This document shows, one piece after another, positions 28,029 through 44,009 of a stretch of 64,000 bases of DNA; the first letter of the stretch is position 1, and the number at the start of each line of letters is the position of its first letter. Both the position numbers and the translations under genes were made by a program. Below the pieces are notes generated by a model. It was not told the origin of the DNA. It saw only the letters and a list, made by a program, of their open reading frames with translations, and ran no database searches. Source of the stretch: Nitrospinales bacterium (GTDB lineage: Bacteria; Nitrospinota; Nitrospinia; Nitrospinales; VA-1); contig OZ253496.1 in the NCBI GenBank assembly GCA_965262115.1, positions 672,001-736,000 on the forward strand, read 5' to 3'.

Positions 28029-28427
28029 ATGGCTAAAGGGAAAATTCTAATTGTTGATGACGAGCAGGATGTAAGAGATATTTTCTCAGATCGATTAGAA
28101 AAAGGTGGATACAACCCTATAGTGGCAGAAAACGGGGAAGAAGCTATTGCGCTCCTTCGTTCTGGCGACAATATGATAAATGTCGGACTTATCATGTGTG
28201 ACATTCGCATGCCAAAGGTAAACGGGATTGAATGCATCGCTTTCCTGAAACAAGAGGCGCCGGGAATCCCGGTGGTCGTTGTGACCGGGTATCCGGATCC
28301 AGATATGGCACGTGACCTAATAGCAAGAGGCATCAAGGAATATCTGGTCAAGCCCGTTGATAATGACACCATGATGAAAATGGTTAATAGAATTGTTGCG
28401 GAGGGAAAAGACTTTTCACTTGCTTAA
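28029..28427 (+). CDS. Single-domain response regulator (CheY-like)
   Basis: LIVDDE, CDIRMP (phospho-Asp), VVTG, YLVKP. Confidence 0.92.
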   Translation: MAKGKILIVDDEQDVRDIFSDRLEKGGYNPIVAENGEEAIALLRSGDNMINVGLIMCDIRMPKVNGIECIAFLKQEAPGIPVVVVTGYPDPDMARDLIARGIKEYLVKPVDNDTMMKMVNRIVAEGKDFSLA

Positions 28428-28575
28428 CAAGAATCCATTCACCGAACTCATAGTATTGAAAATCTTTTTCTACCGCTTACTCAGGTTTCACTACGGGTTT
28501 AAAAATGGGAAGAAAATAAAGCGCTACGACCAGAATTAGGTGCAATCAATTTTCCCGGTTCAAATCTAAAACCCT

Positions 28576-28767
28576 TCAAGAGGGATTCCAAGTCTCTTTA
28601 ATAATTTTCCAGCTATTGCCTTCGTTTTCCCAGATCAGTTTCTTCCGTCCTATATCGGAAATCCTGTCTGATTTAAAGTCCTGAACAAAAGACATTTCTA
28701 TGGTCTCATCGTTTTGCTTCATCTCAATGTCGCTGACCTGGATGATGATTCCCGAGTTTCGGCGCAA
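28576..28767 (-). pseudogene. Fragment of an NTF2-like domain as found in L,D-transpeptidase-associated proteins
   Basis: FVQDFKSDRISDIGRKKLIW...WKIIKETW; no credible 5' part. Confidence 0.5.
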
Positions 28768-28819
28768 AATAAAAAGGAAGGTTGTTTGTCAGTTTCCGAT
28801 TGAAGTGATTGACAACCTT

Positions 28820-29305
28820 TTAAAGCATTTTTTTTATGTAGGGCACCAATTTGTCAGCGCCAACGCCCTGAGTTCGGGTATTTAAAACTCCCTTTTGATC
28901 AATAATCAAAACCGTTGGCATATCCCTTTGCGAATAGGACTGATAAACCCCTTTCGCCGGATCGATTAAATAAGGAAACTGTACTTTTTCCGGGAACTTG
29001 CTGAGATAGTTCGCCACCGCTTCCCTGGAGTCGCCATTGGTATTGATCCCCAACACCACCACCTGATCTTCATTAAGCTGGTCTCTAACTTTATTAAATT
29101 CCATAGCTTGGTTCATGCAAGGAACACAAATATGGAACATACCTATTATAACCACCTTGCCTTTAAAATCTGACAATGCCATCTGTTTACCATCCATGGA
29201 TTTCAAGGAAAATTCAGGAGCCTGCTCCCCCGGTGAAGGCGCCCCTGCAAAAGCGGGAACCACCCCTAAAATCATGATAATCAATGAGAGAATTATTTTT
29301 CGCAT
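28820..29305 (-). CDS. Exported TlpA/ResA-like thiol-disulfide oxidoreductase
   Basis: Signal peptide, APEFSL...LSDFKGK, CVPC, cis-Pro loop MPT. Confidence 0.87.
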   Translation of the reverse strand: MRKIILSLIIMILGVVPAFAGAPSPGEQAPEFSLKSMDGKQMALSDFKGKVVIIGMFHICVPCMNQAMEFNKVRDQLNEDQVVVLGINTNGDSREAVANYLSKFPEKVQFPYLIDPAKGVYQSYSQRDMPTVLIIDQKGVLNTRTQGVGADKLVPYIKKML

Positions 29306-29783
29306 GATACACTCCATTTCATGGAATATTTTATTATGAAATCCACTCTTAAGAACGGATAGTTTTGCCTCTTATTCTATTTTAATTCAGGGCAAACTGA
29401 TTTGAAAGACATTTCAAAGAGACCAAAAATAGCAGCAATGTGAAGCCAAAACTCTCCCTTGACTTGGTGCAAATTTTATACTAAAAATCAGGTGTAATCC
29501 TTTAATTCTCTTAGGCTTTACGCTGAGATTCGAGCCTGATTCACAAGATAATGATTTTTGTCTCAAGAGACCTCATCCTTTGGGGTATATCCTTGGGAAT
29601 ATCTTCTTTTTCAATGGGTTAACTTAACAGCAGGCCGTCAAACAATAAATTGAGAGCCCCCATTGAAAGTATAATTATGAACGCTGGTTTTTATTAGACC
29701 TCGCAAATTTCTCAATGAAAAAATCGGAAAGCAACGATCACCTCCTTTTAAAGTTGCTAACTTTTGACACGAGGGTTTTAAGA

Positions 29784-30641
29784 ATGAAAAAAATATTGTT
29801 CCTCCCTAAAGTGTTGTTCGCCCTGGTCACGCTGTTGACCTTCTCCCTTCCAGCTTTTGCCTATCAGGAAATCAATGTTCAAAACGGAGGGACCATCAAG
29901 GGAAATGCTAAAATGATCGGCGGTATGCCTTTTCCCCGCCATTACCATCTGATATTGTTCCCCAATATTGATATGTGCGCGGAAGTGGATACCGATGATG
30001 AAATGAACCGGGTTCTCGATGACTTTAAAATTTCGAAGGATGGTGGGCTTAAAGATGTGGTCATCACCCTGAAACATGTTGAAGCCGGAAAGCCCTTCAA
30101 CAAAGAACCTATTGTGATCACTTCAGAAAACTGTAAATTTTTTCCGGATGTTAATGTCATCCGACAGGGCGAAGCTTTCAAGATAGACAATCTCGATGCG
30201 GTCATGCACAACAGCCAGGTCTACCAAAAGGAGAGAGGGAAAATCCTCTTAAACATCCCCATCCCCGCCGAAGAAGTTTCTGATGGAAAAGTCCAATTTA
30301 AAAAACATTACAAGATCATGCAAATGATTTGTGGAATGCACGAGTTCATGCAGACCTGGGGTTATCGGGTGCAAAATCCTTATTACTTCCAAACCGATAT
30401 TGATGGAAGCTTCAATATCGGAGATATTCCACCAGGAGAATATGAGGTCACTGCCTGGCACTATTTGATGAAAGTGCAAAAAAGGAAAATCAAAATCGCC
30501 GCAGGCGAAACAATCGACCTGAATTTTGAGTTTGACGGCGACAAGGTTACTCGGCCTTTCTACGAAACCATCAAATCTGGAAGAATCAAAAAAGATGCGG
30601 TTTATCCGGGAACCGCAAAAGGAAAAGAGCTGGGGCGCTAG
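29784..30641 (+). CDS. Exported cupredoxin-like/carboxypeptidase-regulatory-like domain protein
   Basis: Signal peptide, NGGTIKG, NLDAVMHN...CGMHEFM, NPYY...IPPGEYEVTAWH. Confidence 0.8.
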   Translation: MKKILFLPKVLFALVTLLTFSLPAFAYQEINVQNGGTIKGNAKMIGGMPFPRHYHLILFPNIDMCAEVDTDDEMNRVLDDFKISKDGGLKDVVITLKHVEAGKPFNKEPIVITSENCKFFPDVNVIRQGEAFKIDNLDAVMHNSQVYQKERGKILLNIPIPAEEVSDGKVQFKKHYKIMQMICGMHEFMQTWGYRVQNPYYFQTDIDGSFNIGDIPPGEYEVTAWHYLMKVQKRKIKIAAGETIDLNFEFDGDKVTRPFYETIKSGRIKKDAVYPGTAKGKELGR

Positions 30642-30642
30642 C

Positions 30643-32547
30643 TTGAAGCCATTCATAAAAGCCGGTATTTTCCATGAGCATGGAGTCATTCCCCTGCTCC
30701 TTTTCTGTTTTCTCGCGACATCTGCCCCCGCGTGGGGGTTCACCCCCCCTCCATCTGAAGATGTCCCTAAAATCTTTATCTTTAAAGATAAACCGATCGC
30801 TCTAAAAAGCCTGAGCAATCCTTTCAAAAAGGATCCAAAAGTTATCAAGGAAGGGGGAACCTTATACACCAAACATTGCTTTTTCTGCCACGGTGACTTA
30901 CTGGACGGCAACGGATTGTTCGGAAAAAGTTTTTTTCCGCCTCCGGCAGATTTTACCCGCCTCGACTCAATCCTCGCCCGGCCACAGGCCTATACCTTCT
31001 GGCGCATTATGAAAGGAGGCCAAGGTCTACCGGAAAAATACGATCCCTGGAACTCGGCCATGCCCGCCTGGGAAGACACCTTGAGTGTAAAAGACGTTTG
31101 GAAAATCATCACCTATATCTATGGAGTTGCTGGACAACGACACGCCAAGCCCGGCAAACAGGAGCCGCCTTCTCTGGAGAGAGGAAAACAGGTTTATCTG
31201 GAAAAATGCGCCTATTGCCACGGAGACAAGGGCAAGGGTGATGGCCCTGCAGCCGATTACTCCATGCCGCAACCGAGAAACCTGACTAAAGGCCATATAA
31301 AAATCCGTTCTACATCATTTGGCAAAATTCCAACCGATGAAGACTTGCTAAACGTCATCAACAACGGCTTGCGCGCAACCACCATGCCCGGATGGAAATA
31401 CCTGCCCGAAAATGATCGCAAGAGTCTGCTTATATTCATAAAGTCTTTATCCAAAAAATTTGAAAAGTTTAAGAAGAGAGGCAAAAGCCATAAAGTGATA
31501 AAGGTCGGCAAAGAACCCGCCCTGTCCGCGGAAAGTATAAAACGAGGCGAACCCCTGTTCCTGACTCAGTGTTCCGGGTGTCACGGCATAAAGGGGCGAG
31601 GAGACGGCGTGACCACACAACGCATTGTGGATTATTCATCGAGCGCCATCTGGCCGAGAAACCTGAGCCAGCCCTGGACCTTTCGCCGGGGCAGTACCCG
31701 CAGGGATATCTTCAAGACCCTGCGTACAGGACTCTCCACAACCGCCATGCCCAAGTTCTCACCAAGAGTATTCAAAGATGAACAGATTTGGGATATCGTC
31801 AACTACGTCAGCACCCTGGCTCCGCCCACTCAGCCCAAAATGCAAAGTCCCATTCGCGCTAAAAAAGTGGAAGGAGAAATTTCGGACGACCCCAACTCCC
31901 CTGTCTGGCAAGACGCGCAAGCCAGCTTTGTTCCTTTAGGGGGCCAACTTCAGGCAAAACCCAAATCTTATTTCCCGACAGTGCGCTACCTGATAATACG
32001 TGCGGTCCATAACAAAAAAGAAATTGCCCTTTATATCCATTGGGATGACCCCTCTCTCGACCCGGCGCTAAAAAAATTGACCCCCGTCAAAGAATCACCC
32101 GTGCCGCCACTGCCAGAAAGCATGAAAGGCCACAAGGAACCAGAAGAACCCCTGGAACCAACTATCCCCGACTACCCGGATGCTATTGCGGTGCAGTTCC
32201 CTATCAATCTGGATACCCACAAACCCTACTTCCTCAATGGCGATGCCGATCACCCTGTCAACCTTTGGAAATGGACATCTTCCACTAATAAAGCGACAAA
32301 GATACACGCCAGCGGAATAGAAAACTGGTTTGAGGAGGAAAAGTCTTCGGTCAAAGTTAAAGGGAGTTTCAGCTATGGCAGGTATTCAGTAATTTTAAAA
32401 CGCGCCTTCAAAGAAGATGACGATGACATCCAGTTCCAAACCGGCAGACCCATCCCCATCGCCTTCAATGTCTGGGACGGATACGCCGAAGAATCCGGCA
32501 ATAAAAAATCCATCTCCTCCTGGTTCACCCTCTGGCTCGACGAGTAA
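30643..32547 (+). CDS. Exported tri-haem cytochrome c with a C-terminal ethylbenzene-dehydrogenase-gamma-like (haem b) domain
   Basis: TTG start after the upstream stop, signal peptide, CFFCH, CAYCH, CSGCH each followed by MPxW/F; WDD, DAIAVQFP, VNLWKW, IAFNVWDG...K. Confidence 0.85.
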   Translation: MKPFIKAGIFHEHGVIPLLLFCFLATSAPAWGFTPPPSEDVPKIFIFKDKPIALKSLSNPFKKDPKVIKEGGTLYTKHCFFCHGDLLDGNGLFGKSFFPPPADFTRLDSILARPQAYTFWRIMKGGQGLPEKYDPWNSAMPAWEDTLSVKDVWKIITYIYGVAGQRHAKPGKQEPPSLERGKQVYLEKCAYCHGDKGKGDGPAADYSMPQPRNLTKGHIKIRSTSFGKIPTDEDLLNVINNGLRATTMPGWKYLPENDRKSLLIFIKSLSKKFEKFKKRGKSHKVIKVGKEPALSAESIKRGEPLFLTQCSGCHGIKGRGDGVTTQRIVDYSSSAIWPRNLSQPWTFRRGSTRRDIFKTLRTGLSTTAMPKFSPRVFKDEQIWDIVNYVSTLAPPTQPKMQSPIRAKKVEGEISDDPNSPVWQDAQASFVPLGGQLQAKPKSYFPTVRYLIIRAVHNKKEIALYIHWDDPSLDPALKKLTPVKESPVPPLPESMKGHKEPEEPLEPTIPDYPDAIAVQFPINLDTHKPYFLNGDADHPVNLWKWTSSTNKATKIHASGIENWFEEEKSSVKVKGSFSYGRYSVILKRAFKEDDDDIQFQTGRPIPIAFNVWDGYAEESGNKKSISSWFTLWLDE

Positions 32548-32623
32548 CCCCGTAGCCGGGGAGGCCGATAGCAATAGCCCGTTGAGCAGCCATAACTCTT
32601 TGCTCGCCAGCGAGAGTCATTGC
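32548..32623 (+). repeat. Diverged relative of the argS-downstream repeat
   Basis: TAGCCGGGGAGGCCGATAGCAATAGC resembles rc 16247-16276; GAGAGTCATTGC resembles GAGAGTCGTTGC of the tandem unit. Confidence 0.5.
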
Positions 32624-32726
32624 AAATGGGCCCACTCCTCGTGACGGGAGAGTTTGATATAATCCCCTATTGCGATAATCCAATAAAATTGTAACCAAGC
32701 AGTAACTTTCCCCCTGACAGGTGAAA

Positions 32727-33653
32727 ATGACAGGAAAAATAAAAAGAGTTGGTTTGCGGGAGGTTTGGAAACATGAGGCGAAAGATTTTGCAATTTGGCT
32801 TGAGGAAAACTGACATTCTTAACGATGTGATAGACCTTGAACTAACTAGCGCTGAACGTGAAAAATCCGTTGGAACATTTAACGTTGATTTGGTTGCTGA
32901 AGACAAATCCGGAAAACTTATAATAATTGAAAATCAATTAGAAAAAAGCAATCACGACCACCTAGGAAAAGTAATCACTTATCTCACCAACTTAGAAGCG
33001 ATAGCCGCTATTTGGATTGTTAAAGAGCCTCGACCCGAACATATTAGAGCTATTTCTTGGTTAAATGAAAGCAGTACAGCTGCATTTTATTTAATCAAAT
33101 TAGAAGCCATAAAAATATGGGCATCTGACTCAGCACCGCTTCTTACGTTGATTGTAGGCCCCAGCGAAGAGGGCAAGCAAATTGGAACGACCAAAAATGG
33201 TTTGGCAGAGAGACATGTTTTAAGGAAAAGGTTTTGGAAACAGTTGTTGGATTGCGCTAAAAATTATTCAAAATTACATTCAAATATTTCACCGAGCTTG
33301 TCAAATTGGGTTGCGGCAGGCTCAGGTAAAAGCGGGATAATTTATAGTTATGTTATTAACAACAATGATGCATCGGTGGAACTATATATTGATCGCGGAA
33401 AAGATAATGAAAAAAAAATGAGAAAATTTTTGACACTTCGGCTAAAAAGTCTAAGGACATCGAAAGTTCCTTTGGTCGTCCTTTAGACTGGCAACGTCTT
33501 GAGGGAAGACAGGCTTGCCGAATCAAGTTTAGTATTACTGGAGGAGGTATTGGGAATGAGGACAAATGTCCTGAAATACAAAAAGCCATGGTAGATTCCA
33601 TGACCCGGTTAGAAAAAGCCCTTCGACCTCATGTTAAAGGTTTAAAAATATGA
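32727..33653 (+). pseudogene. DUF4268-domain protein (nuclease-like N-terminus), two frameshifts
   Basis: MTGKIKRVGLREVWKHEAKDF..., frameshift near 32810, VD...IIIENQLEKSNHDHLGK, frameshift in the A9 tract near 33410, IESSFG..LDWQRL...ACRI. Confidence 0.85.
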
Positions 33654-33781
33654 GCTAATGTAAATCACCCCGACCCATCGAACAAAACGTATTCCTATTG
33701 TTCGAGTTTAAAAAAGAGGGCGCAATCGAGGGCCTCAACACGACATCAGGTTAAACCCACTTGTGATCAATCACACCTGCA

Positions 33782-33879
33782 CGTCGTCGCGAGCCGCGAA
33801 GCGGCGCGGCGATCCAGACTTCATAACAAACCCCTATGGATTTACCACTTCTGGATTGCTTCGCTCTGCTCGCAAAGAC
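33782..33879. repeat. Inverted pair of CGTC-type REP-like palindromes
   Basis: CGTCGTCGCGAGC...GCGATCCAG (33782-817) and CTGGATTGCTTCG...CTCGCAAAGAC (33851-879). Confidence 0.75.
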
Positions 33880-33976
33880 AACTTGGGCCAACCCTCCCTC
33901 AAGCCGAGACAATCTATTGTTTGCTAGATAAAGTTATTGCAATTTGAGTCCAGCGCCACGCTGGTGCGCCGAGCAC

Positions 33977-34014
33977 AAAAAAAAACAGCACCGGAACCGA
34001 AGTTCCGACGCTGT
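33977..34014 (-). terminator. Rho-independent terminator
   Basis: ACAGC..CGGAAC-CGAA-GTTCCG..GCTGT hairpin with a long U tail on the minus strand. Confidence 0.75.
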
Positions 34015-34135
34015 AATTTTTAAGGGTGTCTCTAATAATTCACTGTTTTATGTTTTGGCAATTCGTGCGCCCTTTCTTTCAAAGGTCGCACTCATGGCCT
34101 CGAACAATCTATAGAAATTCCCTTTTAAACTTTTC

Positions 34136-34954
34136 TTACTTCTTGGCGGTCAGCGTAAAATCAGCTTTAGCTGCACCATCTGCTACGGTAACTTCCATAG
34201 TAGACTCGCCAACATAAGGTTGCCATGCCGTCACTTTGTATGTACCGGCAGGAATTCCCTCAATCTTGAAAGTCCCGTCAGCACCCGTAACCGCGTAATA
34301 AGGGTTCCACACGATTCGTGCATCGGCTTCCATGAAGTTGTGCTGGTCGCACTGCAGGAAGAAATGTTTATCCTTTTTCTGCTTGAAGCGAGCCAGGTTC
34401 TTGGTCACGTCCGCAACATCACCCTTACTTGGCAGAGGCTTGTTGAACAGAGTTTTGCGGCTTGCACCCACAATGGAATATCCATGCGGGTTGTGCAAAA
34501 TTTCCTCATCCCGATTCGTGATTGTCACCAGGCCACCTGTTTTTTTCTCTGCTTTGGTAGCCTTGCGAACAGCACCCATTTTCTGGACAATATCGCATTT
34601 TTCGAAATCGAAAGCCATTTTGCCCCCATCACCCCAAGGCTTTCCGGCTTTAATATTTTCGATAAATACCACCGCGTCTTTCAATTTACCGCCCACAGCT
34701 GAAACTTTGATACGGGGCCGAATTCCACCCTCTTTGGTATCAGGATGTGTGACACAGAACTCAACGTTTTTACCTTTGTTCAAGTCTTCCATGATCGGGG
34801 CCGGGGCATCCCCCTTTAGCATTACCGTGCCTGTGATGGAGCCTGCGCCTGCTGCACCCTCTGCATACTTAGGCTTCTTTGCCGCAAAACCGGTGGACGC
34901 TCCCAATACCAATGACAGGGAAGCCACCATTACACCTAAAACAATCTTCTTCAT
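34136..34954 (-). CDS. Exported cupredoxin-like/carboxypeptidase-regulatory-like domain protein
   Basis: GGAGG RBS, signal peptide, NRDEEILHN...CDQHNFM, NPYYAVTGADG...IPAGTYKVTAW. Confidence 0.82.
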   Translation of the reverse strand: MKKIVLGVMVASLSLVLGASTGFAAKKPKYAEGAAGAGSITGTVMLKGDAPAPIMEDLNKGKNVEFCVTHPDTKEGGIRPRIKVSAVGGKLKDAVVFIENIKAGKPWGDGGKMAFDFEKCDIVQKMGAVRKATKAEKKTGGLVTITNRDEEILHNPHGYSIVGASRKTLFNKPLPSKGDVADVTKNLARFKQKKDKHFFLQCDQHNFMEADARIVWNPYYAVTGADGTFKIEGIPAGTYKVTAWQPYVGESTMEVTVADGAAKADFTLTAKK

Positions 34955-35093
34955 TTCTTTCGTCCCTCCTTCAATTAGGAAATCAAAAAATATACACCGC
35001 ACACAATGATACATGTCTCTCTAAAAATCCACGAAACCACCAGCTTTTGAGAATGCCGGAATTGTAGCATAAAGAATCCGCTGTTATAATGTT

Positions 35094-35123
35094 AAAAAGG
35101 GGCCCCATCAAGAGGCCCCCTTT
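35094..35123 (-). terminator. Rho-independent terminator after the giant oxidase
   Basis: AAAAAGGGGCC-loop-GGCCCCCTTT. Confidence 0.65.
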
Positions 35124-35157
35124 CACTTTTCTTAAAATAACTACCAAAAACCGGCAA

Positions 35158-38100
35158 TTATCTCATTGACAGCTTATCATCCCCAGCTTTGGAAGCGGAT
35201 TTCTCCCCTTCTTCCGGCTGAGATGCGGTTTTCACACCCTTCACTGTCGCTTTACCCAGCGGCAGGATGGAACGATCACCCACAGGCAATACCTTGAAAT
35301 AACCCCATTGGCCTGCCTGTTGGTATGGCGTTCGAGCATTCAACCACAGGTAGGTGCCGGGGTTATTGTAGGTTCCACCGGCCTTGGTGTAGGCCTGAAT
35401 GTACTCGCCCGCACCAAACTGCTCGGCATCAATCATGTCAGAACCATTCTGATCCATATGGCGCCGCCACTGGTGGCCATCCATATTGAACACCTGGTTC
35501 TGCTCATTATGAGCCCCAAAAATGTTGATCATTATCTGATCCCCAGCATGGGCTTTCAGAGTCGGTGTTGCTGGATCAGAATCCGCCGCAACACAAGCCG
35601 TGAACATATTACCCAGTTCACAACCCTCGTCTTCACGATAGAGCCATGGTTCCAAGCGGTAGTTCACACCCGTCAACCCTGCTACGTTCTGCAGGTAAGG
35701 CATGAAAGATGTACCGATGATGTTGTCTTCATCCTGGAAGTACAACGCAAAGTCTCGGTAGTTATCGATTTTCGCGTTTTCAGGGTAGGACTTATCAATG
35801 ATGACATCCGCTTTCCAGGAATTACCGAGAGAGATGTCTTTCCCGGTCTCCGGATCACGGTACACCGAACCACGCGGCCCGATGATGATACCGCCATATA
35901 AACCATCGCGAATATTTGTCAGCAGGTTACCGAAATCCCATAACAACGAACCATTGATTTTGAACTCAGGGTGCGCGTAGAACGTATAGGTTTTCGATTT
36001 ACCCGGAGCCACCGTCTGGTCGCCCGGATTGTTCCCGACGTTGATGCCCTGAGAATCCTTGGGATCGAACGCGATGTTATTAGCATGAATCGATGCGTTG
36101 CCTTTTTTCAGGCGGTTGGTCAGCTTGATCTTGACACAATCACCGATATTGACACGCAGGGTCAACGGATGCGGCATGTGGCCATCGTCAGCAGCCTGTT
36201 TGACTTCGCCTTCCAGAGCGTAAATTTTCGCACTGGCATTAGCAAGAAGCAGTTTGCGTTCAAAGTCCACTTCGATCTCATCTTCAGCGCTGGGATGAAA
36301 CTTCAACGCTTTGTCAATCGCGACAACACTGAAGTTTTTAACCGGAGCGCCTTTCGGGCACACAGTCTTCTTAACTTTTTTCTTAAAGTCTGTGTTGCCA
36401 GGGAGGATTTTCAGATCTTTCTGAACTTCATCATGCACACGGATAATTCCCCAACTCCCTTCAGACAACTTGGAGGTTCGTCCGTTGTAGTACAGATAAT
36501 CACCCGCCATTTGCTGAAAACCACCCGCTTTGGTGGGCAGGTCATAACGCTCAGCAATGCCAATATGAATGGTGTTTGTCACGCGGGAGTCCCGGTCATA
36601 ACGCTCCGGCCGGTAACCATGACCTGACACGACAAAGGTATGGGTCTCATTCTGCATACCCGCCAAAAGCCTGAAGACAATATTGTCTCCTACATAAGCT
36701 CTCAACATGGGTGTAGAAGGATCACCATGCACCTTACTGCTGAACAGTTTGGAAGCGTCTTTGTTGCTTGCAATTCTTGCGGCCAAAGAAGCAGCCCTGA
36801 AATTGAAAGCACCCCCTGTTGTATGGGTTCCACCATTCAACAAGGGAAAGGCAACTTCCAGCATGTCAGTAGGCATCTGGAAGGAAATCGATTGTCCCGC
36901 GGCGATCGCGTTTTCACGTGACAGCCCCGGCGGATTTCCTGCAGTCACCAACTGAGCAGTATGAGGAACGGTGTCACTCACCTGGGCCACCAATTCACGG
37001 AAACTTCCTTGAGTGTTGTAGCCAACAATTTCAGTACTATGAATATCAGCTACCGGTCCACTGCGAATCAGCTTGCCAGTTGTGGGATCATGGTACGTAG
37101 ACCCCCAAGGCTCAGCAATGGTAGACCCGATTCCGCCGTGCGGCCAAGTGGTCGCGCCGAACGCATGATCATGCCAGAACACCAGACCCATATCAACATC
37201 CACCCACCAGCGATAACGCACATATTCAGTCGTGACGATATGACCTGCTGCATGCGCATGCGTCATTCCCTCAGAGAACTTGATGGTGTATTTGCCATCT
37301 TTTGCTGGGCCTTTATTCGGATCAGGCGTGATGTTTGTGATCCAGCGTGCGTCCTTGCCATTGGGAACTTCGATACCAACAATGATATCAGCTCCAACAT
37401 GGTAGGTGGGCGAACCCTTTGCCATCTGAACCTGGATCGTGCTGTCACCCGGTTTCGTCGCCTTCAACAACTTGGCGTTCATCGGAACCGGCATGCCAAC
37501 ATGATGTCCGTCTTTCATCTTCTTGGTAAACTGCTTGTAAGACCTCATCGACTGGTCATAAGAGAATCCAGTGATTACGCCATCTGAGGCCTGGTTGTCG
37601 AACTGGAAGAAATGTGGATGGATGTTAACTTTAGACATCTGGAAATTAGTAAAGTCATCATCATCCCATTCACTTGAAAGCAGGACATCCACGCAGTCAT
37701 AAACATTTGCGCGAATGACCAATGGAATGGCTTTTTTAGGATCTGCTTTTTTCTCAGCCATTTCTTCATCAATCACATAGATCAAACCGTATTTATCAAT
37801 GACCGGCGGGGTTTTCCCAATCTGTCCGGCAAGCTCGATCGGAGTGTTGATGAAGTGCAGGTTGTACTGTTTGCGTCCAGCACCTCGGGGACAAAGGCTC
37901 CATCGGCCCTGTTCACCCGGTTTGGCACCACCCGTATTCTCCATATCGGGACCACTTCGCGCACTCCCGGATTCCGTCTTAGTAATAACCTCCGGATCGG
38001 TCTGCATATGGAATGGCTCCAGCCAGGGAGCGCCACCATGGTTTCGCGCAAAAGGAACACGCTTACCAAAATGCGGTGTCAGATGAGGCCACGCCAGTTT

Positions 38101-40110
38101 GCCATGTTGGTCAAACTGAATCGGATGGCGTTTACCAGGATGCGGAGTTTTAAATTTCGGCCATTTAGTAACCGTTTCCCGCTCAGACATGGCCTTATTA
38201 CCTTTCCAGCCATAATCCAATACAGAACCGTCGTACGCCTTGATCTGTTTGATCTGATCATCATGATGACCCGGTTGGCCCTTGGGCGGAAGCATGTACT
38301 TCACCCAGTCCTTGATATTGACGACCGGGATTTCTTTCGACCAGTCACTTTTTCCTTTTCCTACAATTTTAAACTTCTTGCCAAACCAGTCCATGGTTTT
38401 ACCGACCAGCTTGTCTGAAGTTTGTCCTTTGGGAATTCTTCCCGCACGATCAGGAAGTTCTTTCAAGGGACGCATGATATCGGTGCTTTCAAACGGATAG
38501 TTGCCCGTCTGCAGGATGTTGTAAACCCTCCAATAGCCCCACATACCTGCTACGTAATGATGCGCAACGTGACAATGGAACAGGAAGTCCCCTGCCAGAC
38601 GTTGACAAAGTCCGGATCCACATTCCGTTTCCAGATCCATAACTTCTGAAGGACCAATGACTTGAACGTCAACACGAGCTGAAGTTGTTCTTACAACAGG
38701 ATACTTAACAGGACCGTCATAAGCCGCTGTGGTCAGGTTCAGCAACTGCTGAGCTTCACGTTGTGGAGAACGGGTCCAACGAATGGTTCCACCATGCGGA
38801 TGATGGGAATGGAAAACTTCACCACCGCCATGCACGAGGCGGAATTTTGCCGGATCACCCAGATAGGAACGGGGAATCGTGGTCGGAGCATCTCCGAAAG
38901 TGTAAGAGCTGTAAGCCAGAGATTCGTCTTCAAAATGAAATTTCTTTTCCTGAACAGCCAGGTTGTTGATACCAAACGGCTCGGAGCGGAAATTCAAAGC
39001 GCGTGCAGAAGGACGGTATGCGTCTGTCTGCGGATCACGTTGAGGGATCATTTCGCCATGACGGTTGAGGGGGCGAAAAGATTCGTCACCCACTTCGTGG
39101 TACATCAGAGTAAATTCCCGAAAATCCTTGGCATTGTCATTGACAATCATGGCCATCCAGCCGCTTTCCAGCGGACCACCGGTCCATGGATCCAAGTAAC
39201 GGGCACCTCTCGGCTCAACAATAAACGTTCCGATCAATCCCAGAGAAGAAGGATCACGACCCGCATGATTCTGAATCATGTGACCACCTTCCTGCTCATC
39301 GATTGGGATGTACCACTCATAGTCTTGTGACTCTTCGGCCGCCACAATGGAGCCCGGAGTCGCCGCCGTGTTGGGTTGACCGCTGGAACTGATGATCATA
39401 GCGGACCCATTAATCTGAAAACCCGCGTCCTCATCTTCCAACTGGTTCGTAAATTTAACGCGGACACATTCTCCCTGATTACCTCTGATAACTAAGGGTT
39501 GAATGGCATCGCCTTGAAGGCCGTTAGAAACCGCACCGGGATCCATTCCGTATTCACGAGCGGCTGCATTTTTTTCCTCTTCAGCGCGGACTTTATCAAT
39601 GTTCTTATCCAGAACATACATATAGCCTGGGTAGTAATCGCCCCATTGGTTGAGAGTGACTTCCACATTAATCGCCGAGATATTATATTGTTTTACGGGA
39701 ATGTTGCTGGGACAGTGGGCACCTTTATATACTTTTGCTGCCGCTTCCGTTGGCCCGAGGAGATAGCTTTGTCCCAACTGATGGGCGGCCCAGGAGTCGT
39801 GAAAACCGCCACCGGATGAAGCCGGGCTGGCGTGTTCCTTGAGCTTGGATTTTAACTGGTCCATGATTCTCATCATGGTGTTGTCCAGTTTGCCCTGACT
39901 GCCTTCCATGCCGGACATTAGGTCTTCATGCTCAAGTTGTTTTTCAAGCTTTTCCAACCATGCGGGTTTGTCTACCGCAGCATTGCCGAGATTGTGACCG
40001 CCATGTGAATGGTCAGTCGAGACCGCGCCTGCCGGGACAGAAAGCCCCAAGGTCATAAGAATGACCGCAAACGCATGCCAGTTTTTCCATCCCTTTTTGA
40101 CACCAAACAT
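35158..40110 (-). CDS. 1650-aa MnxG-like multicopper oxidase, exported
   Basis: AGGAGG RBS, signal peptide, His-rich start; HSHHPHG, HCHVAHH-x4-M, then IHPH and WHDH; further cupredoxin repeats with degenerate ligands. Confidence 0.85.
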   Translation of the reverse strand: MFGVKKGWKNWHAFAVILMTLGLSVPAGAVSTDHSHGGHNLGNAAVDKPAWLEKLEKQLEHEDLMSGMEGSQGKLDNTMMRIMDQLKSKLKEHASPASSGGGFHDSWAAHQLGQSYLLGPTEAAAKVYKGAHCPSNIPVKQYNISAINVEVTLNQWGDYYPGYMYVLDKNIDKVRAEEEKNAAAREYGMDPGAVSNGLQGDAIQPLVIRGNQGECVRVKFTNQLEDEDAGFQINGSAMIISSSGQPNTAATPGSIVAAEESQDYEWYIPIDEQEGGHMIQNHAGRDPSSLGLIGTFIVEPRGARYLDPWTGGPLESGWMAMIVNDNAKDFREFTLMYHEVGDESFRPLNRHGEMIPQRDPQTDAYRPSARALNFRSEPFGINNLAVQEKKFHFEDESLAYSSYTFGDAPTTIPRSYLGDPAKFRLVHGGGEVFHSHHPHGGTIRWTRSPQREAQQLLNLTTAAYDGPVKYPVVRTTSARVDVQVIGPSEVMDLETECGSGLCQRLAGDFLFHCHVAHHYVAGMWGYWRVYNILQTGNYPFESTDIMRPLKELPDRAGRIPKGQTSDKLVGKTMDWFGKKFKIVGKGKSDWSKEIPVVNIKDWVKYMLPPKGQPGHHDDQIKQIKAYDGSVLDYGWKGNKAMSERETVTKWPKFKTPHPGKRHPIQFDQHGKLAWPHLTPHFGKRVPFARNHGGAPWLEPFHMQTDPEVITKTESGSARSGPDMENTGGAKPGEQGRWSLCPRGAGRKQYNLHFINTPIELAGQIGKTPPVIDKYGLIYVIDEEMAEKKADPKKAIPLVIRANVYDCVDVLLSSEWDDDDFTNFQMSKVNIHPHFFQFDNQASDGVITGFSYDQSMRSYKQFTKKMKDGHHVGMPVPMNAKLLKATKPGDSTIQVQMAKGSPTYHVGADIIVGIEVPNGKDARWITNITPDPNKGPAKDGKYTIKFSEGMTHAHAAGHIVTTEYVRYRWWVDVDMGLVFWHDHAFGATTWPHGGIGSTIAEPWGSTYHDPTTGKLIRSGPVADIHSTEIVGYNTQGSFRELVAQVSDTVPHTAQLVTAGNPPGLSRENAIAAGQSISFQMPTDMLEVAFPLLNGGTHTTGGAFNFRAASLAARIASNKDASKLFSSKVHGDPSTPMLRAYVGDNIVFRLLAGMQNETHTFVVSGHGYRPERYDRDSRVTNTIHIGIAERYDLPTKAGGFQQMAGDYLYYNGRTSKLSEGSWGIIRVHDEVQKDLKILPGNTDFKKKVKKTVCPKGAPVKNFSVVAIDKALKFHPSAEDEIEVDFERKLLLANASAKIYALEGEVKQAADDGHMPHPLTLRVNIGDCVKIKLTNRLKKGNASIHANNIAFDPKDSQGINVGNNPGDQTVAPGKSKTYTFYAHPEFKINGSLLWDFGNLLTNIRDGLYGGIIIGPRGSVYRDPETGKDISLGNSWKADVIIDKSYPENAKIDNYRDFALYFQDEDNIIGTSFMPYLQNVAGLTGVNYRLEPWLYREDEGCELGNMFTACVAADSDPATPTLKAHAGDQIMINIFGAHNEQNQVFNMDGHQWRRHMDQNGSDMIDAEQFGAGEYIQAYTKAGGTYNNPGTYLWLNARTPYQQAGQWGYFKVLPVGDRSILPLGKATVKGVKTASQPEEGEKSASKAGDDKLSMR

Positions 40111-40324
40111 TTGCTACCTCCTAGTAGTGCGTCTAAAAATGGCTAAACAAAAACCGTTGAATGTAGTTTTTTTCTGAATCTATATAGCGGCCCCTTCCAC
40201 CCCCTAAAATGGTAGGCCAAAAAATTTAACCCCTTATATCAAAAGGTTTATAAGATTTCTTGTGTAAAACAAAACATCCCCGCAGACAAAAACCTTGCAT
40301 TTTGGGTGCGCCAATTTAACAAAT

Positions 40325-41698
40325 TTAATTTTCCCTGACAAGCCCCAAATGAAACTTTTTATCATTTCTCCAAACCAACAGAAAAATCGCACTTCCTTTG
40401 TTAATTTTGCCTAATAATCGGTCAAAATCGGGCTGATTTTCAACGACCTCTCCATTGACCGCCGTGATCAGGTCCCCAGACAGCAACCCCTTCAAGCCAG
40501 CAGGACTCTCCGGGTTGACGCTGGACACCAGAGCCCCGGCAGGCAAATGCGTTCCCTTTGCCGGATCCTCCACGCTGAACCCCAGTCCCGATGGACTTAA
40601 AGGCGACAAATTGGCCAATTGGGTAGTGTTTCTCTTCCTCGATTCCAGTTTGACCGACACCATTTGGGATTTGCCGTCCCGCAGAATATCCAGATTGATG
40701 GTCTGCCCCGGCGTGATCGCCCCAATCACTCGAATCATTTTATTCGGGGAATCAATGTGAGATCCGCCAATCTTCAGAATGATATCGCCTATTTTGAGAC
40801 CCGCTCGATCAGCCGGGTCGCCCTCAAAAATAGAATTGATGATGACCCCTTTTCCCTCCTGCACATTAACTCGTTGGGCAACCTCCTCGGTTACAGGGTC
40901 AATGCCGACCCCCAGCCAGCCGCGATGCACCTCGCCATTTGCCACCAATTGTTCCACCACATGCTTGACCATATTGGATGGAATAGAAAAACCGATGCTC
41001 TGGGCGTAATTAATGATCGCTGTGTTGATGCCAATCACTTCCCCTTTGATGTTCAAGAGAGGTCCACCGCTACTGCCCGGGTTGATAGAAGCATCGGTCT
41101 GCAGGAAATCTTCATAACGAGAGAGATTGACATTTTCCCTCTTCAGTCCGCTGATAATGCCAAAAGTGGTGGTGTCATTAAGTCCATACGGATTGCCCAC
41201 CGCGACCACCAGTTGACCGACGCGGACTTTACTGGAGTCTCCAAACTTAACTTCGGTCAACGGCTTGTCGGAGGATACATGAATCACGGCGAGATCGGTG
41301 TCTTCATCGGTCCCCAGCACTTCACCGATGATCTCCCGGCCATCCTTAAAGGTCACCTTGATTTTGTTAACATTGCGCACCACATGACTGTTGGTGACAA
41401 TAAGGCCCTTTTCAGCATTGTAGACAACCCCTGCTCCGGCATTTGTGGGCCTGCCCCTGTTGGGCAGCCCCTGCCCGATAGCGCCTTTAGCAACATAAGG
41501 TGACAAGCTGACAACCGCAGGACGCACCTGATCCGCGAGTTCCACCAATTCGTTTTCCATCTGCTCCAAAATTCCCGCTTCGCCTGAAAAAGGAATCGCA
41601 AAAAGCAGAGCGGCAAAAAATAAAACAAATATCACCTGTAGGTTTTGTAATAGGTATTGAAAGAAATTCCCGGTTTTAGAAAAATAATGTTTCACCAT
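40325..41698 (-). CDS. Do/DegP/HtrA serine protease with two PDZ domains
   Basis: TNSHVV, TDLAV, QTDASINPGSSGGPL, RGWLGV. Confidence 0.93.
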   Translation of the reverse strand: MVKHYFSKTGNFFQYLLQNLQVIFVLFFAALLFAIPFSGEAGILEQMENELVELADQVRPAVVSLSPYVAKGAIGQGLPNRGRPTNAGAGVVYNAEKGLIVTNSHVVRNVNKIKVTFKDGREIIGEVLGTDEDTDLAVIHVSSDKPLTEVKFGDSSKVRVGQLVVAVGNPYGLNDTTTFGIISGLKRENVNLSRYEDFLQTDASINPGSSGGPLLNIKGEVIGINTAIINYAQSIGFSIPSNMVKHVVEQLVANGEVHRGWLGVGIDPVTEEVAQRVNVQEGKGVIINSIFEGDPADRAGLKIGDIILKIGGSHIDSPNKMIRVIGAITPGQTINLDILRDGKSQMVSVKLESRKRNTTQLANLSPLSPSGLGFSVEDPAKGTHLPAGALVSSVNPESPAGLKGLLSGDLITAVNGEVVENQPDFDRLLGKINKGSAIFLLVWRNDKKFHLGLVREN

Positions 41699-41876
41699 TG
41701 ATCCGTTATCAAAGAAAAACGACAGAAGGTACGTTTTGAATGGAAAGAGCTTTAATGTTTTTTCGCTCCCAGAGCTTGATTTTTCGGCACGGGCATGAAA
41801 AAGTAAGAGGGTCGCTATCTAATGTAATTTCAATTTATATAAACTATCCATTCTCATGTCAAGTGGGAAGCCCGTT

Positions 41877-42578
41877 ATGACATTATCATCTATTGATTTC
41901 GAAGCTAAATCTGCGGAAGAACTGTTGCGTTGGAGTATGGACCAATATGGCGTTAAAGCTGGACTGGCATCCAGCTTCGGCATGGAAGACATGGTGCTCA
42001 TCGACATGATCGCCAAACTCGATGGCCCCCTCACCATCTTCACCCTCGATACCGGACGACTTCATGAAGAAACCTATGAAGTCATGGACCGGGTGCGATC
42101 CAAATATGGACTCGAAATCAAAACCTATTTTCCCGACCACAATGAAGTCGAGCGTCTGGTTCGGGAAAAAGGGTTTTTCTCGTTCCGTGAAAGCGTGGAC
42201 AACCGCAAGGAGTGTTGCTACATCCGCAAAGTGGAGCCGCTGAATAGAGCATTGGGAGAATTGAAAGCCTGGGTGACAGGATTAAGACGGGCCCAAGGGG
42301 TCACGCGGACAGATATCCCAAAAGTCATGGAAGATCCGGATCATCCTCCTTTAATAAAAATCAATCCTCTTGCGGAATGGACCGAGGAACAGGTATTGAC
42401 CTATATTACGGAACACAATGTTCCTATCAACGTCCTGCATAGAAGAAATTACCCCAGCATTGGTTGTGCCCCCTGCACACGTCCGGTAGAACCCGGTGAA
42501 GACATCCGCGCCGGGCGCTGGTGGTGGGAAAACCCGGAACATAAAGAATGTGGCCTCCACCAGCGTAACGCCCACTAG
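41877..42578 (+). CDS. cysH: Thioredoxin-dependent APS/PAPS reductase (4Fe-4S, APS-type)
   Basis: LDTG, ECCYIRK, GLRRAQ, SIGCAPCT, ECGLH. Confidence 0.93.
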   Translation: MTLSSIDFEAKSAEELLRWSMDQYGVKAGLASSFGMEDMVLIDMIAKLDGPLTIFTLDTGRLHEETYEVMDRVRSKYGLEIKTYFPDHNEVERLVREKGFFSFRESVDNRKECCYIRKVEPLNRALGELKAWVTGLRRAQGVTRTDIPKVMEDPDHPPLIKINPLAEWTEEQVLTYITEHNVPINVLHRRNYPSIGCAPCTRPVEPGEDIRAGRWWWENPEHKECGLHQRNAH

Positions 42579-42590
42579 GCGTGGGGCCAA
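42572..42590 (+). repeat. 19-bp exact copy of the argS tandem-repeat junction
   Basis: CCACTAGGCGTGGGGCCAA equals the rc of 16557-16575 and 16359-16377; contains the cysH TAG. Confidence 0.8.
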
Positions 42591-42623
42591 CTAGCCATAC
42601 TTTCACTTGCTAACCAGAAATAG

Positions 42624-43295
42624 CTATTGCTCATTGCCACCGGCGGCTCGCCGGTAGCGGTCTATATCGGAAAATACCCAGACGATGAATTGCAGGACGG
42701 AACGGCACACAGAACGTAATTTTTTAGTGCCCCGTTCACTCTCATTCTTGCGAAGACCTGCAAAATATTCTTCGGTCTCGGCAAAGATCATCGGCAAAAA
42801 CTTCACCGCCATTACCGAAACAGCAAGCAGGTCGCGGATGATCGGCAAACGATATGTCATGGGACCAAGCAGCTTATCCAGGCCTCCCATCCAGTCCGCC
42901 GTCGTGCGCACCAGCACCAGGGATATAAGGAGAATGTTCAGCAGTCGCGCGGAGGATTCTAGACCCAACGCCAAGCCTTCACGCGAAAGGGTGACGGGAA
43001 TCCACGCAGGCAGGTCAATATAAAACCCCGGAGTGAACAGCACAGGAAAAATCGCGATGGCCAAAAAAAACCAGGTCATGCGCCGGATGACATGAAAAAT
43101 TTCTTTAACAGGCACTCGGGCTACGAGAACTCCCAACACCGACAGCAAACCGACCACGGAGAGGGCCCAGCTATTGCCTACTCCCGCTCCTATTAACAGG
43201 AATAAAGCGGCGATGATTTTAGTTTCCGGCTTTAAGTTATGGAGAACGCTGTCACCCGCCACATAACCACCATTTTTAGTGCTGTGGATTTTCAA
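42624..43295 (-). CDS. ECF transporter transmembrane (T) component, CbiQ/EcfT family
   Basis: GYVAGDSVLHNLKPETKI, FTPG, RL...VRTT, KFLP. Start approximate; the ORF-track extension is antisense to the HD gene. Confidence 0.72.
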   Translation of the reverse strand: MKIHSTKNGGYVAGDSVLHNLKPETKIIAALFLLIGAGVGNSWALSVVGLLSVLGVLVARVPVKEIFHVIRRMTWFFLAIAIFPVLFTPGFYIDLPAWIPVTLSREGLALGLESSARLLNILLISLVLVRTTADWMGGLDKLLGPMTYRLPIIRDLLAVSVMAVKFLPMIFAETEEYFAGLRKNESERGTKKLRSVCRSVLQFIVWVFSDIDRYRRAAGGNEQ

Positions 43296-43364
43296 TTGTT
43301 CGTTGATCCTTAAATCGGGATATGAAATGATACCGCTGTTCATGAACCTTAAAATTATCAGACC

Positions 43365-44009
43365 ATGCCTATTATAAATAAAACCTGTCGCTTTGTGGAG
43401 CAGAAGCTCGCAGGTGACGGGTCTGGCCACGACTGGTGGCATATCTACCGGGTATGGAACCTGGCAAAAAATATCGCCAAACAGGAGGGGGCCAATTTGC
43501 TCATCGTTGAGTTGTCCGCCCTGCTCCACGATATTGCCGACTGGAAATTTCACGACGGTGACGACAGCAAAGGCCCGCAAATGGCAGAACAGTTCCTTAT
43601 AGATAATCAAGTGGAGCGTAAAGTGATCGACCCGGTCGTTGAAATCGTCGCCAGCATCTCTTACAAGGGTGCCGGAGTTGCCACTCCCATGCAAACACTT
43701 GAAGGCAAAGTGGTGCAAGATGCCGACCGGCTTGACGCCATTGGGGCAATGGGCATCGCCCACACTTTCGCCTATGGCGGAAACAAAAACCGTTTGATGT
43801 ATCACCCTGATGAAAAGCCAGTCATGCATCAGAGTTTTGCGGATTACAAAAAAAATACCGGGCACACCATCAACCATTTTTATGAAAAACTGCTTTTACT
43901 GAAAGACCGGATGAACACGGCCTCGGCCAAAAAGATGGCGGAAGGTAGACACCAGTTCATGCAGGCGTATCTCGATCAGTTTTATGAGGAGTGGGATGGA
44001 AAAGCTTGA
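43365..44009 (+). CDS. HD-domain phosphohydrolase
   Basis: GHDWWHIYRV, LLHDIAD, VQDADRLDAIGA, HFYEKLL. Confidence 0.92.
   Translation: MPIINKTCRFVEQKLAGDGSGHDWWHIYRVWNLAKNIAKQEGANLLIVELSALLHDIADWKFHDGDDSKGPQMAEQFLIDNQVERKVIDPVVEIVASISYKGAGVATPMQTLEGKVVQDADRLDAIGAMGIAHTFAYGGNKNRLMYHPDEKPVMHQSFADYKKNTGHTINHFYEKLLLLKDRMNTASAKKMAEGRHQFMQAYLDQFYEEWDGKA

Follow-up and report, generated by a model that had tools for sequence, protein, structure and literature searches.

A MnxG-type multicopper oxidase and its cupredoxin neighbours in a Nitrospinales genome: a possible soluble outlet for electrons to O2

What does the giant MnxG-like oxidase of nitrite oxidisers do, and which of the genes around it work with it? 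We addressed this question in a 64-kb stretch of the Nitrospinales bacterium GCA_965262115.1 (OZ253496.1, 672,001-736,000; the window, whose numbering is used throughout), in which the oxidase locus occupies positions 28820-41698. The original prediction had described six exported proteins within 13 kb and read them as one dedicated electron-transfer module of a probable nitrite oxidiser. All six open reading frames (ORFs) were confirmed in place: from left to right, a TlpA-like protein (minus strand), the cupredoxin-like CUP1 and a cytochrome (plus strand), a frameshifted DUF4268 gene that is no part of the group, and then CUP2, a 1650-aa oxidase and DegP (minus strand). Each of the six proteins has a single hydrophobic N-terminal stretch and no membrane segment further on, so export is predicted for all of them. 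The host genome (single contig, 2.68 Mb, 94% complete) carries nxrABC approximately 700 kb from the locus, and the closest named oxidase (98% identity) comes from a record labelled Nitrospina sp. LS_NOB, which confirms the nitrite oxidiser that had been called probable; the genus of the latter was renamed Ca. Nitromaricola (PMC13768755). The locus was already annotated in N. gracilis in 2013, and the present host is a new carrier of a known cluster. New here are the division of the locus into a core shared across phyla and lineage-specific additions, the loss of the haem-b Met ligand in the cytochrome, and the low-O2 proteome signal of the oxidase, drawn from a published N. marina table. Three things are observed: the copper-ligand sets, a cupredoxin fold in the CUP1 model, and the linkage of oxidase and cupredoxins in two phyla. 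On these we tentatively favour a soluble periplasmic O2-reducing electron outlet fed through the cupredoxins.

On its ligand motifs and its match to MnxG, the 1650-aa protein (35158-40110, minus strand) belongs to the six-domain multicopper oxidases of the MnxG type, and its set of copper ligands is complete. Its sole sequence match in the PDB at E<=0.001 was MnxG of the Bacillus sp. PL-12 Mnx complex (9bxa, E 4e-96), which upholds the earlier description of a giant MnxG-like oxidase. Both proteins have six cupredoxin domains, a permuted motif order, one type-1 site (domain 2) and trinuclear ligands split over domains 2 and 3. The motifs follow one another as in MnxG and each of them aligns with it (HxxHxH at 434-439 and HCHxxxHxxxxM at 512-523 in domain 2; HxH at 831-833 and HxH at 980-982 in domain 3); weak hits at E 0.35-0.96 in these comparisons were taken as chance. 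The type-1 ligands (His434, Cys513, His518 and Met523) and the eight trinuclear-cluster histidines (437, 439, 512, 514, 831, 833, 980 and 982) were invariant in 32/32 homologues from two phyla. A complete eight-histidine cluster is of the oxidase type, while a single three-histidine type-2 site marks a copper nitrite reductase. The site is therefore an oxidase site and not a nitrite-reductase site, and the NirK family TIGR02376 gave no match at the oxidase gene.

Compared to MnxG, the oxidase is approximately 420 aa longer (an N-terminal extension, a linker of about 200 aa and a beta insertion of about 100 aa in domain 3), has a predicted signal peptide, and is flanked by type-1 copper protein genes instead of MnxE/MnxF. 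The domain-3 insertion (residues 865-962, window about 37225-37518, minus strand) is absent from MnxG, is confidently modelled and carries two invariant histidines, His904 and His953. At E<=0.001 the only fold match of the domain-3 model was again 9bxa (E 1.2e-5); its pLDDT is below 50 around the copper loops, and the model therefore says nothing on cluster geometry. The oxidase is 77% conserved between the host and the relatives of family f2, more than SecA (71%) or DnaB (69%), and is 79% identical to the named N. gracilis oxidase over residues 130-1640 (among the best 120 of 1791 matches).

The main rival reading, already proposed in print, is that of a Mn(II) oxidase whose periplasmic Mn(III) removes superoxide, or which ties the N cycle to the Mn cycle; the cupredoxins would be accessories, or would divert Mn-derived electrons to the respiratory chain. 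It draws on Bacillus MnxG, which alone among solved structures is related in sequence and which also matches the fold of domain 3 best, on the shared six-domain layout and motif order, and on a Manganitrophus genome with three oxidase copies. Moreover, the search of the host genome gave no superoxide dismutase of the Fe/Mn or Cu/Zn type, and Lucker 2013 noted none for N. gracilis (PMC3578206). However, MnxG is matched only in local stretches, and in the NCBIfam MnxG equivalog NF041487, of which the oxidase is not a member, its score is 111 bits where 3100 are required. At this locus no MnxE- or MnxF-sized gene fits beside the oxidase, where the gaps are about 200 nt on each side. Manganese-oxidising activity is called unconfirmed in PMC9477243 and in a sand-filter preprint, which states that homology is no proof of Mn oxidation (10.1101/2024.12.25.630300), and no enzyme assay of the oxidase was found in the literature searched (subscription papers and preprint supplements were outside reach). 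We agree with the original prediction that the substrate cannot be read from the sequence, and regard manganese oxidation as a serious but rather doubtful candidate.

CUP1 (285 aa, 29784-30641, plus strand) has the ligand set and, in its AlphaFold model (pLDDT 80), the fold of a type-1 copper protein, and copper binding is predicted. Its ligands His142, Cys183, His186 and Met189, which form an amicyanin-type CxxHxxM loop, were invariant in 29/29 aligned sequences. Fold matches include amicyanin, plastocyanin, the cupredoxin domain of NirK and the copper chaperone CupA. CUP1 shares the His...CxxHxxM set, the amicyanin spacing and the modelled cupredoxin fold with amicyanin and plastocyanin, but its cupredoxin domain sits inside a second, carboxypeptidase-regulatory-like beta sandwich and its identity to solved cupredoxins is 12-25%. 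CUP2 (272 aa, 34136-34954, minus strand) is the second predicted type-1 copper protein. Its full ligand set (His154, Cys202, His205 and Met208) was invariant in 20/20 sequences, and its cupredoxin fold is inferred from homology to CUP1 (29% identity). The database label for both proteins is 'carboxypeptidase regulatory-like', and Atlas searches gave such clusters only. In a quick tree of 56 selected rows, in which the third cupredoxin (CUP3) and a TPR-fused one (TPR-CUP) stood on long branches, CUP1 grouped with the genes 3' of the oxidase in Nitrospirota (SH-aLRT 96), and a weak node (80) united CUP2 with Nitrospira proteins carrying its QCDQH motif. Related domains occur elsewhere in the host. 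In one TPR protein (window 14125-15504, plus strand), a fused domain like CUP1 (37% identity) has the loop CNLHPFL, in which Leu replaces the Met ligand; this fusion also adjoins ArgRS in the genome G034. Two further cupredoxin-like genes lie in the host genome (C1:905693-906985 and 521373-525516): one is a 59% identical CUP2 paralogue adjoining a mono-haem cytochrome c, and the other adjoins a 1016-aa protein with one CxxCH.

The presence of CupA among the fold matches bears on another reading, copper homeostasis, in which the oxidase would oxidise Cu(I), the cupredoxin-like proteins would carry copper, and TlpA and DegP would aid maturation. The N-terminal stretch of the oxidase is His/Met-rich, as this reading would have it, but it is the least conserved part of the protein (0.54 vs. 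0.77-0.88 for the domains), and the conserved neighbourhood showed neither a copper pump nor a copper sensor. A further point against it is that the window holds a separate, CopA-like multicopper oxidase (19202-21340, plus strand; 712 aa, three domains), whose motifs stand in the usual order and which has a Met-rich insert and additional sequence at its C-terminus. We consider copper homeostasis improbable as the function of the giant oxidase.

Gene order was compared first within the order. Of the 25 Nitrospinales genomes fetched, 19 have DegP before an oxidase copy and 20 have CUP2 after one; most of the exceptions are contig ends or second oxidase copies. This proves little, because cysH adjoins DegP in the same 19/19 genomes and the housekeeping genes on both flanks (cysH, HD, SIR2, SelO and CNNM; ArgRS and UDG) are equally syntenic; Nitrospinales synteny was thus rejected as proof of function. 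Among 67 genomes holding both the CUP1/cytochrome block and the oxidase, the two lie within 15 kb in 32, further apart on the same contig in 5 and on different contigs in 30; the distance is decidable in 37, so the TlpA/CUP1/cytochrome block is detached by more than 15 kb in 5/37. Many Nitrospinales carry tandem oxidase pairs (loci L035, L038, L040, L047, L063 and L068), between which lie ORFs of 183-217 aa (sigma-factor-like) and 160-163 aa (ferritin-like), both labelled by eye.

Nitrospirota loci told more. We gathered 37 from Nitrospiria and Manganitrophaceae (24 scorable) and 20 chosen further ones (18 scorable). A cupredoxin gene stands directly 3' of the oxidase in 23/24 of the former and 12/18 of the latter. 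In the first set the neighbour usually carries the exact MICGMHEFMQ motif of CUP1, and Nitrospira-like operons hold CUP1-related genes together with a QCDQH gene like CUP2. By contrast, DegP was present in 1, TlpA in 1 and the cytochrome in 0 of these 57 loci. Only the oxidase-cupredoxin adjacency persists while the other neighbours differ, and so the conserved cross-phylum core is the oxidase plus the cupredoxins; DegP, TlpA and the cytochrome are Nitrospinales additions. The dedicated six-gene module proposed earlier is supported neither by these counts nor by the linkage of DegP, to which cysH is as tight as the oxidase is. The same comparison bears on the reading that these genes are unrelated neighbours in a generally conserved Nitrospinales region, with the cupredoxins and the cytochrome serving NXR and not the oxidase. 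The equally syntenic housekeeping genes, the several transcription units and the detached left block are what such a reading predicts, and for DegP it is probably right. It leaves unexplained an adjacency that holds in Nitrospirota where all other neighbours differ, and that is also found in a genome with no detectable NxrA; for the locus as a whole we give it little credence.

Occurrence across genomes agrees with the core. In a survey with strict thresholds of 91 other Nitrospinota genomes at least 80% complete (76 of the same order and 15 of other orders), close orthologues were found in the 76 Nitrospinales genomes as follows: oxidase 66, CUP1 72, cytochrome 70 and TlpA 71; each was found in 0/15 of the other orders. 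One relative (L050 in G023; single contig, 86% complete) keeps the oxidase only as a stub of 317 aa, with CUP2 lying upstream of it, and gave no match for CUP1, TlpA or NxrB. In Nitrospirota the oxidase is present in 115/301 genomes, mostly in several copies, and the CUP1 profile matched 113/115 oxidase-positive and 0/186 oxidase-negative genomes. The co-occurrence and synteny check suggested earlier thus comes out in favour of the oxidase and blue-copper part, which is linked in two phyla. These counts track lineage, and kin genomes are not independent. The oxidase was found in 77/77 genomes with a Nitrospira-type NxrB and in 0/16 with only a distant NarH-like match; 38 oxidase-positive Nitrospirota genomes gave no NxrB match, among them the Manganitrophus genome with three oxidase copies. 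Against a strict tie to NXR, G041, a Nitrospinota genome of another order, has an NxrB-like protein at 69% identity (C104:11310-12563) and no oxidase match. The idea that one genus (g7) is without NXR was rejected: pieces of NxrA (95-96% identity, first 39-67 residues) are present in 2/4 genomes, probably cut by assembly breaks, and a gap in assembly is therefore likely.

The tie to nitrite oxidisers raises the reading of nitrogen-oxide chemistry, in which the oxidase would turn nitric oxide (NO) into nitrite at low O2, with the cupredoxins accepting the electrons. Ceruloplasmin, a multicopper oxidase, oxidises NO to nitrite. One oxidase paralogue adjoins nxrAB in 2/20 of the further Nitrospirota loci; in these two genomes (L152 and L155) it lies 3-4 kb from nxrAB and has no cupredoxin neighbour. 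Low-O2 induction in N. marina (PMC8115632; see below) would also suit NO oxidation. The eight-histidine cluster, however, is of the oxidase type, and no NirK scored above cut-off in the host genome, although this miss may be an assembly or search gap, because nirK is reported in the five genomes examined in PMC13768755. The Manganitrophus genome with three oxidase copies gave no NxrA match, and its family is described as having no nitrification genes and 'two novel MCOs' (PMC9040806). Altogether, NO oxidation appears very unlikely.

In N. gracilis, NITGRv1_620037 is a 'possible manganese oxidase', for which Lucker 2013 proposed a Mn(III)-based superoxide defence, while also suggesting copper carriers downstream of NXR (PMC3578206). 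In a Pacific metaproteome, the Nitrospinae protein ranks second in abundance among the oxidoreductases of its group and peaks at the cline of the oxygen-deficient zone (r = -0.47 vs. O2; Saunders 2022, PMC9477243); it was counted there as a manganese oxidase, with no assay behind the label. In N. moscoviensis transcripts, three large oxidase genes rank 19, 53 and 1365, and rank 20 is held by a 798-bp gene for an exported protein at the place of CUP2, matched by position and length and not by alignment (PMC6606698 supplement). The first row of the N. marina low-O2 table (PMC8115632 Data Set 3) is a 1627-aa multicopper oxidase, assigned to this family by annotation, length and neighbour and not by alignment, which rises 16-fold (adjusted P 1.6e-18; counts 33/42/12 to 503/409/436). 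Targeted measurement gave 0.41/0.49/0.03 and 48.7/34.2/40.7 fmol per microgram, with the column order assumed (PMC8115632). Superoxide dismutase rises alongside it, a point in favour of the manganese reading (PMC8115632). A text search of the main text of that paper gave no mention of multicopper oxidase or manganese; its Fig. 6 may show the protein. Text searches likewise gave no mention of the oxidase in PMC10839748, PMC11033732, PMC12342949 or PMC13768755 (for the last, its supplement too). For the host itself, one sequencing run, presumed to be RNA, yielded 8 short contigs, all of them on CUP2 and the oxidase and too few to rank genes.

The cytochrome (634 aa, 30643-32547, plus strand) starts at a TTG codon 1 nt after the CUP1 stop, in keeping with the earlier claim of a coupled pair. 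It is soluble, has three CxxCH motifs, and ends in a fourth, NxrC/EbdC-like domain, which the original prediction had missed together with the DUF4268 gene. This domain matches Pfam EB_dh (72 bits, cut-off 33) and the structures 2ivf_C and 7b04_C. The protein is the counterpart of alt_NxrC4 of N. gracilis (NITGRv1_620040; 642 aa, three haem c and one haem-b domain; PMC3578206). The haem b ligands of Kuenenia NxrC are Met155 and Lys305 (PMC8387239). Read off the alignment to the solved NxrC, Asn532 of the cytochrome stands at the Met position and Lys622 at the Lys position. Asn at the Met position was found in 23/23 distinct orthologous stretches, some of which share a genome, and Lys was kept in 22/23; among six other NxrC-like proteins of the host genome, five keep the Met and one gave no pattern match. 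The N. gracilis paper lists a haem-b-binding domain in alt_NxrC4 (PMC3578206), whereas the substitution suggests that the domain likely lacks haem b or binds it differently. No mention of the Met-to-Asn change was found in the literature searched.

In the reading that we favour, CUP1 and CUP2 would take electrons from the periplasmic cytochrome pool and pass them to the oxidase. The electrons would enter at the single type-1 copper of domain 2 and reach the trinuclear cluster between domains 2 and 3, where O2 would be reduced to water. In Nitrospinales, alt_NxrC4, translationally coupled to CUP1, may link CUP1 to the NXR electron pool, and its NxrC-like domain, with the Met ligand lost, may serve as a docking domain. 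TlpA could keep Cys ligands reduced and DegP could provide quality control; both are plausible helpers, or mere neighbours. As the periplasmic NXR protons would be consumed on the same side, no proton gradient would arise, and the system would therefore be a redox valve or O2 sink and not an energy-conserving terminal oxidase. Besides the ligand sets and the linkage, we favour the electron outlet because the oxidase exceeds SecA and DnaB in conservation, because of the transcript ranks, the low-O2 rise and the metaproteome peak at the oxygen-deficient-zone cline, and because no haem-copper oxidase was found in the host genome (94% complete). The search gave two bd-like oxidase genes there, and Ca. 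Nitromaricola is described as having no known terminal oxidases except a bd-like subunit (PMC13768755).

Several points weigh against an electron outlet. A soluble periplasmic oxidase would waste the scarce energy of nitrite oxidation (reasoned from the proton balance in PMC3578206), and an enzyme that served only to scavenge O2 should be induced when O2 is high and not when it is low. The N. marina 306-aa gene adjoining the oxidase is up just 1.5-fold, not significantly (PMC8115632), and in the host a hairpin separates the oxidase from CUP2. Six of the 18 scorable further Nitrospirota loci have no adjoining cupredoxin, and the co-occurrence counts, which follow lineage, overstate the association. 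Cupredoxin-like proteins similar to CUP1 and CUP2 are found in other phyla too, and anammox bacteria hold such proteins without the oxidase (PMC3578206); they may therefore serve NXR instead. The bd-like genes of the host are the published terminal-oxidase candidate (PMC13768755). Finally, binding and electron transfer between the oxidase and the CUPs are predictions. An extension of the same idea, in which the chain NXR, alt_NxrC4, CUP1, oxidase and O2 is the missing low-O2 route of Nitrospinales without haem-copper oxidases, is in our view unlikely.

The remaining genes of the locus lie outside the core. The TlpA/ResA-like exported thioredoxin (28820-29305, minus strand), divergent from CUP1, matches Pfam AhpC-TSA/Redoxin and has the CVPC motif, as predicted, within FHICVPCM, which is kept in 9/9 orthologues; its scores are below the ResA and TlpA cut-offs. 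In several relatives this gene heads an ABC-transporter-like operon that is absent from the host genome. The site of that operon, co-oriented with TlpA, is occupied in the host by the genes at 23324-28427: a ParA-like ATPase, a lone response regulator, an IS3-like element and a small toxin-antitoxin-like pair (the last two labelled by eye). The DegP/HtrA protease (40325-41698, minus strand) has a trypsin domain with the His/Asp/Ser triad and two PDZ domains, and scores just below the TIGR02037 cut-off (392 vs. 416 bits). The gap between the convergent halves of the locus (32548-34135) is an insertion hot spot, holding different genes in each close relative (L031-L033 and L036) and a second tri-haem cytochrome in families f2 and f4. 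In the host it holds the intruding DUF4268 gene (32773-33653, plus strand), frameshifted in a run of nine A at 33410-33418; the frameshift is matched by one sequencing run, possibly from the source sample itself.

The six genes are not one operon: their orientation and the hairpins argue for at least three transcription units, and probably for more. Gene starts were revised to 29305 for TlpA, 29784 for CUP1, the TTG at 30643 for the cytochrome and 34954 for CUP2. The strong Shine-Dalgarno sites reported earlier hold for the oxidase and CUP2 (both 6/6 to AGGAGG) and for CUP1 (5/6), but not for TlpA and the cytochrome (4/6) or DegP (3/6). The strong terminators likewise hold in part. An intrinsic-terminator-like hairpin lies 3' of CUP2 (33985-34014, minus strand; 13 pairs, T9 tail), and another of 13-14 bp with a T-run lies in the oxidase/CUP2 gap (35093-35125, minus strand), followed by a promoter-like site at 35095-35066; these are consensus matches only. 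The number of terminator-like sites in 26000-44000 was not above chance (17 vs. 22.9 ± 4.8 in shuffles). The second hairpin and the promoter-like site suggest that CUP2 is possibly expressed separately from the oxidase.

The closest known system is the locus NITGRv1_620035-620040 of N. gracilis 3/211 (PMC3578206), which like the present stretch holds the APS reductase gene cysH, a giant oxidase (1634 aa there) and the tri-haem alt_NxrC4 together, in the same tag order. Relatives of family f2 differ from the host by the second tri-haem cytochrome, a third cupredoxin and the ABC-like operon by TlpA, none of which had a full-length match in the host genome. Lucker 2013 places the oxidase in the NXR accessory set of Nitrospina and Nitrospira (PMC3578206). 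That set, as known from Nitrospira, Nitrospina and anammox bacteria, comprises alt_NxrC, cytochromes, two cupredoxin-like proteins and a bd-like oxidase. The locus shares its alt_NxrC-type cytochrome and two cupredoxins, and we infer that CUP1 and CUP2 are those two proteins; here, however, nxrABC and the bd-like/alt_NxrC cluster lie 0.7 Mb and 1.9 Mb away.

Two questions of wider interest meet at this locus: the function of a protein counted as a manganese oxidase in the ocean (PMC9477243), and the means by which Nitrospinaceae that have no haem-copper oxidase respire when O2 is very low, which is stated as an open question (PMC8115632 and PMC13768755). The conserved neighbours CUP1, CUP2 and alt_NxrC4, together with the low-O2 induction, turn both into a small set of assays. 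If the manganese reading is true, nitrite oxidisers would be major Mn oxidisers. If the electron outlet is true, gene-based estimates of manganese cycling in the ocean would be wrong, and nitrite oxidisers would have an unrecognised O2-reducing branch. Should the low-O2 route also hold, a respiratory branch of Nitrospinales, turned on under falling O2, would end in a soluble multicopper oxidase, and an enzyme that ranks among the most abundant oxidoreductases of nitrite oxidisers in the ocean would not be a manganese oxidase.

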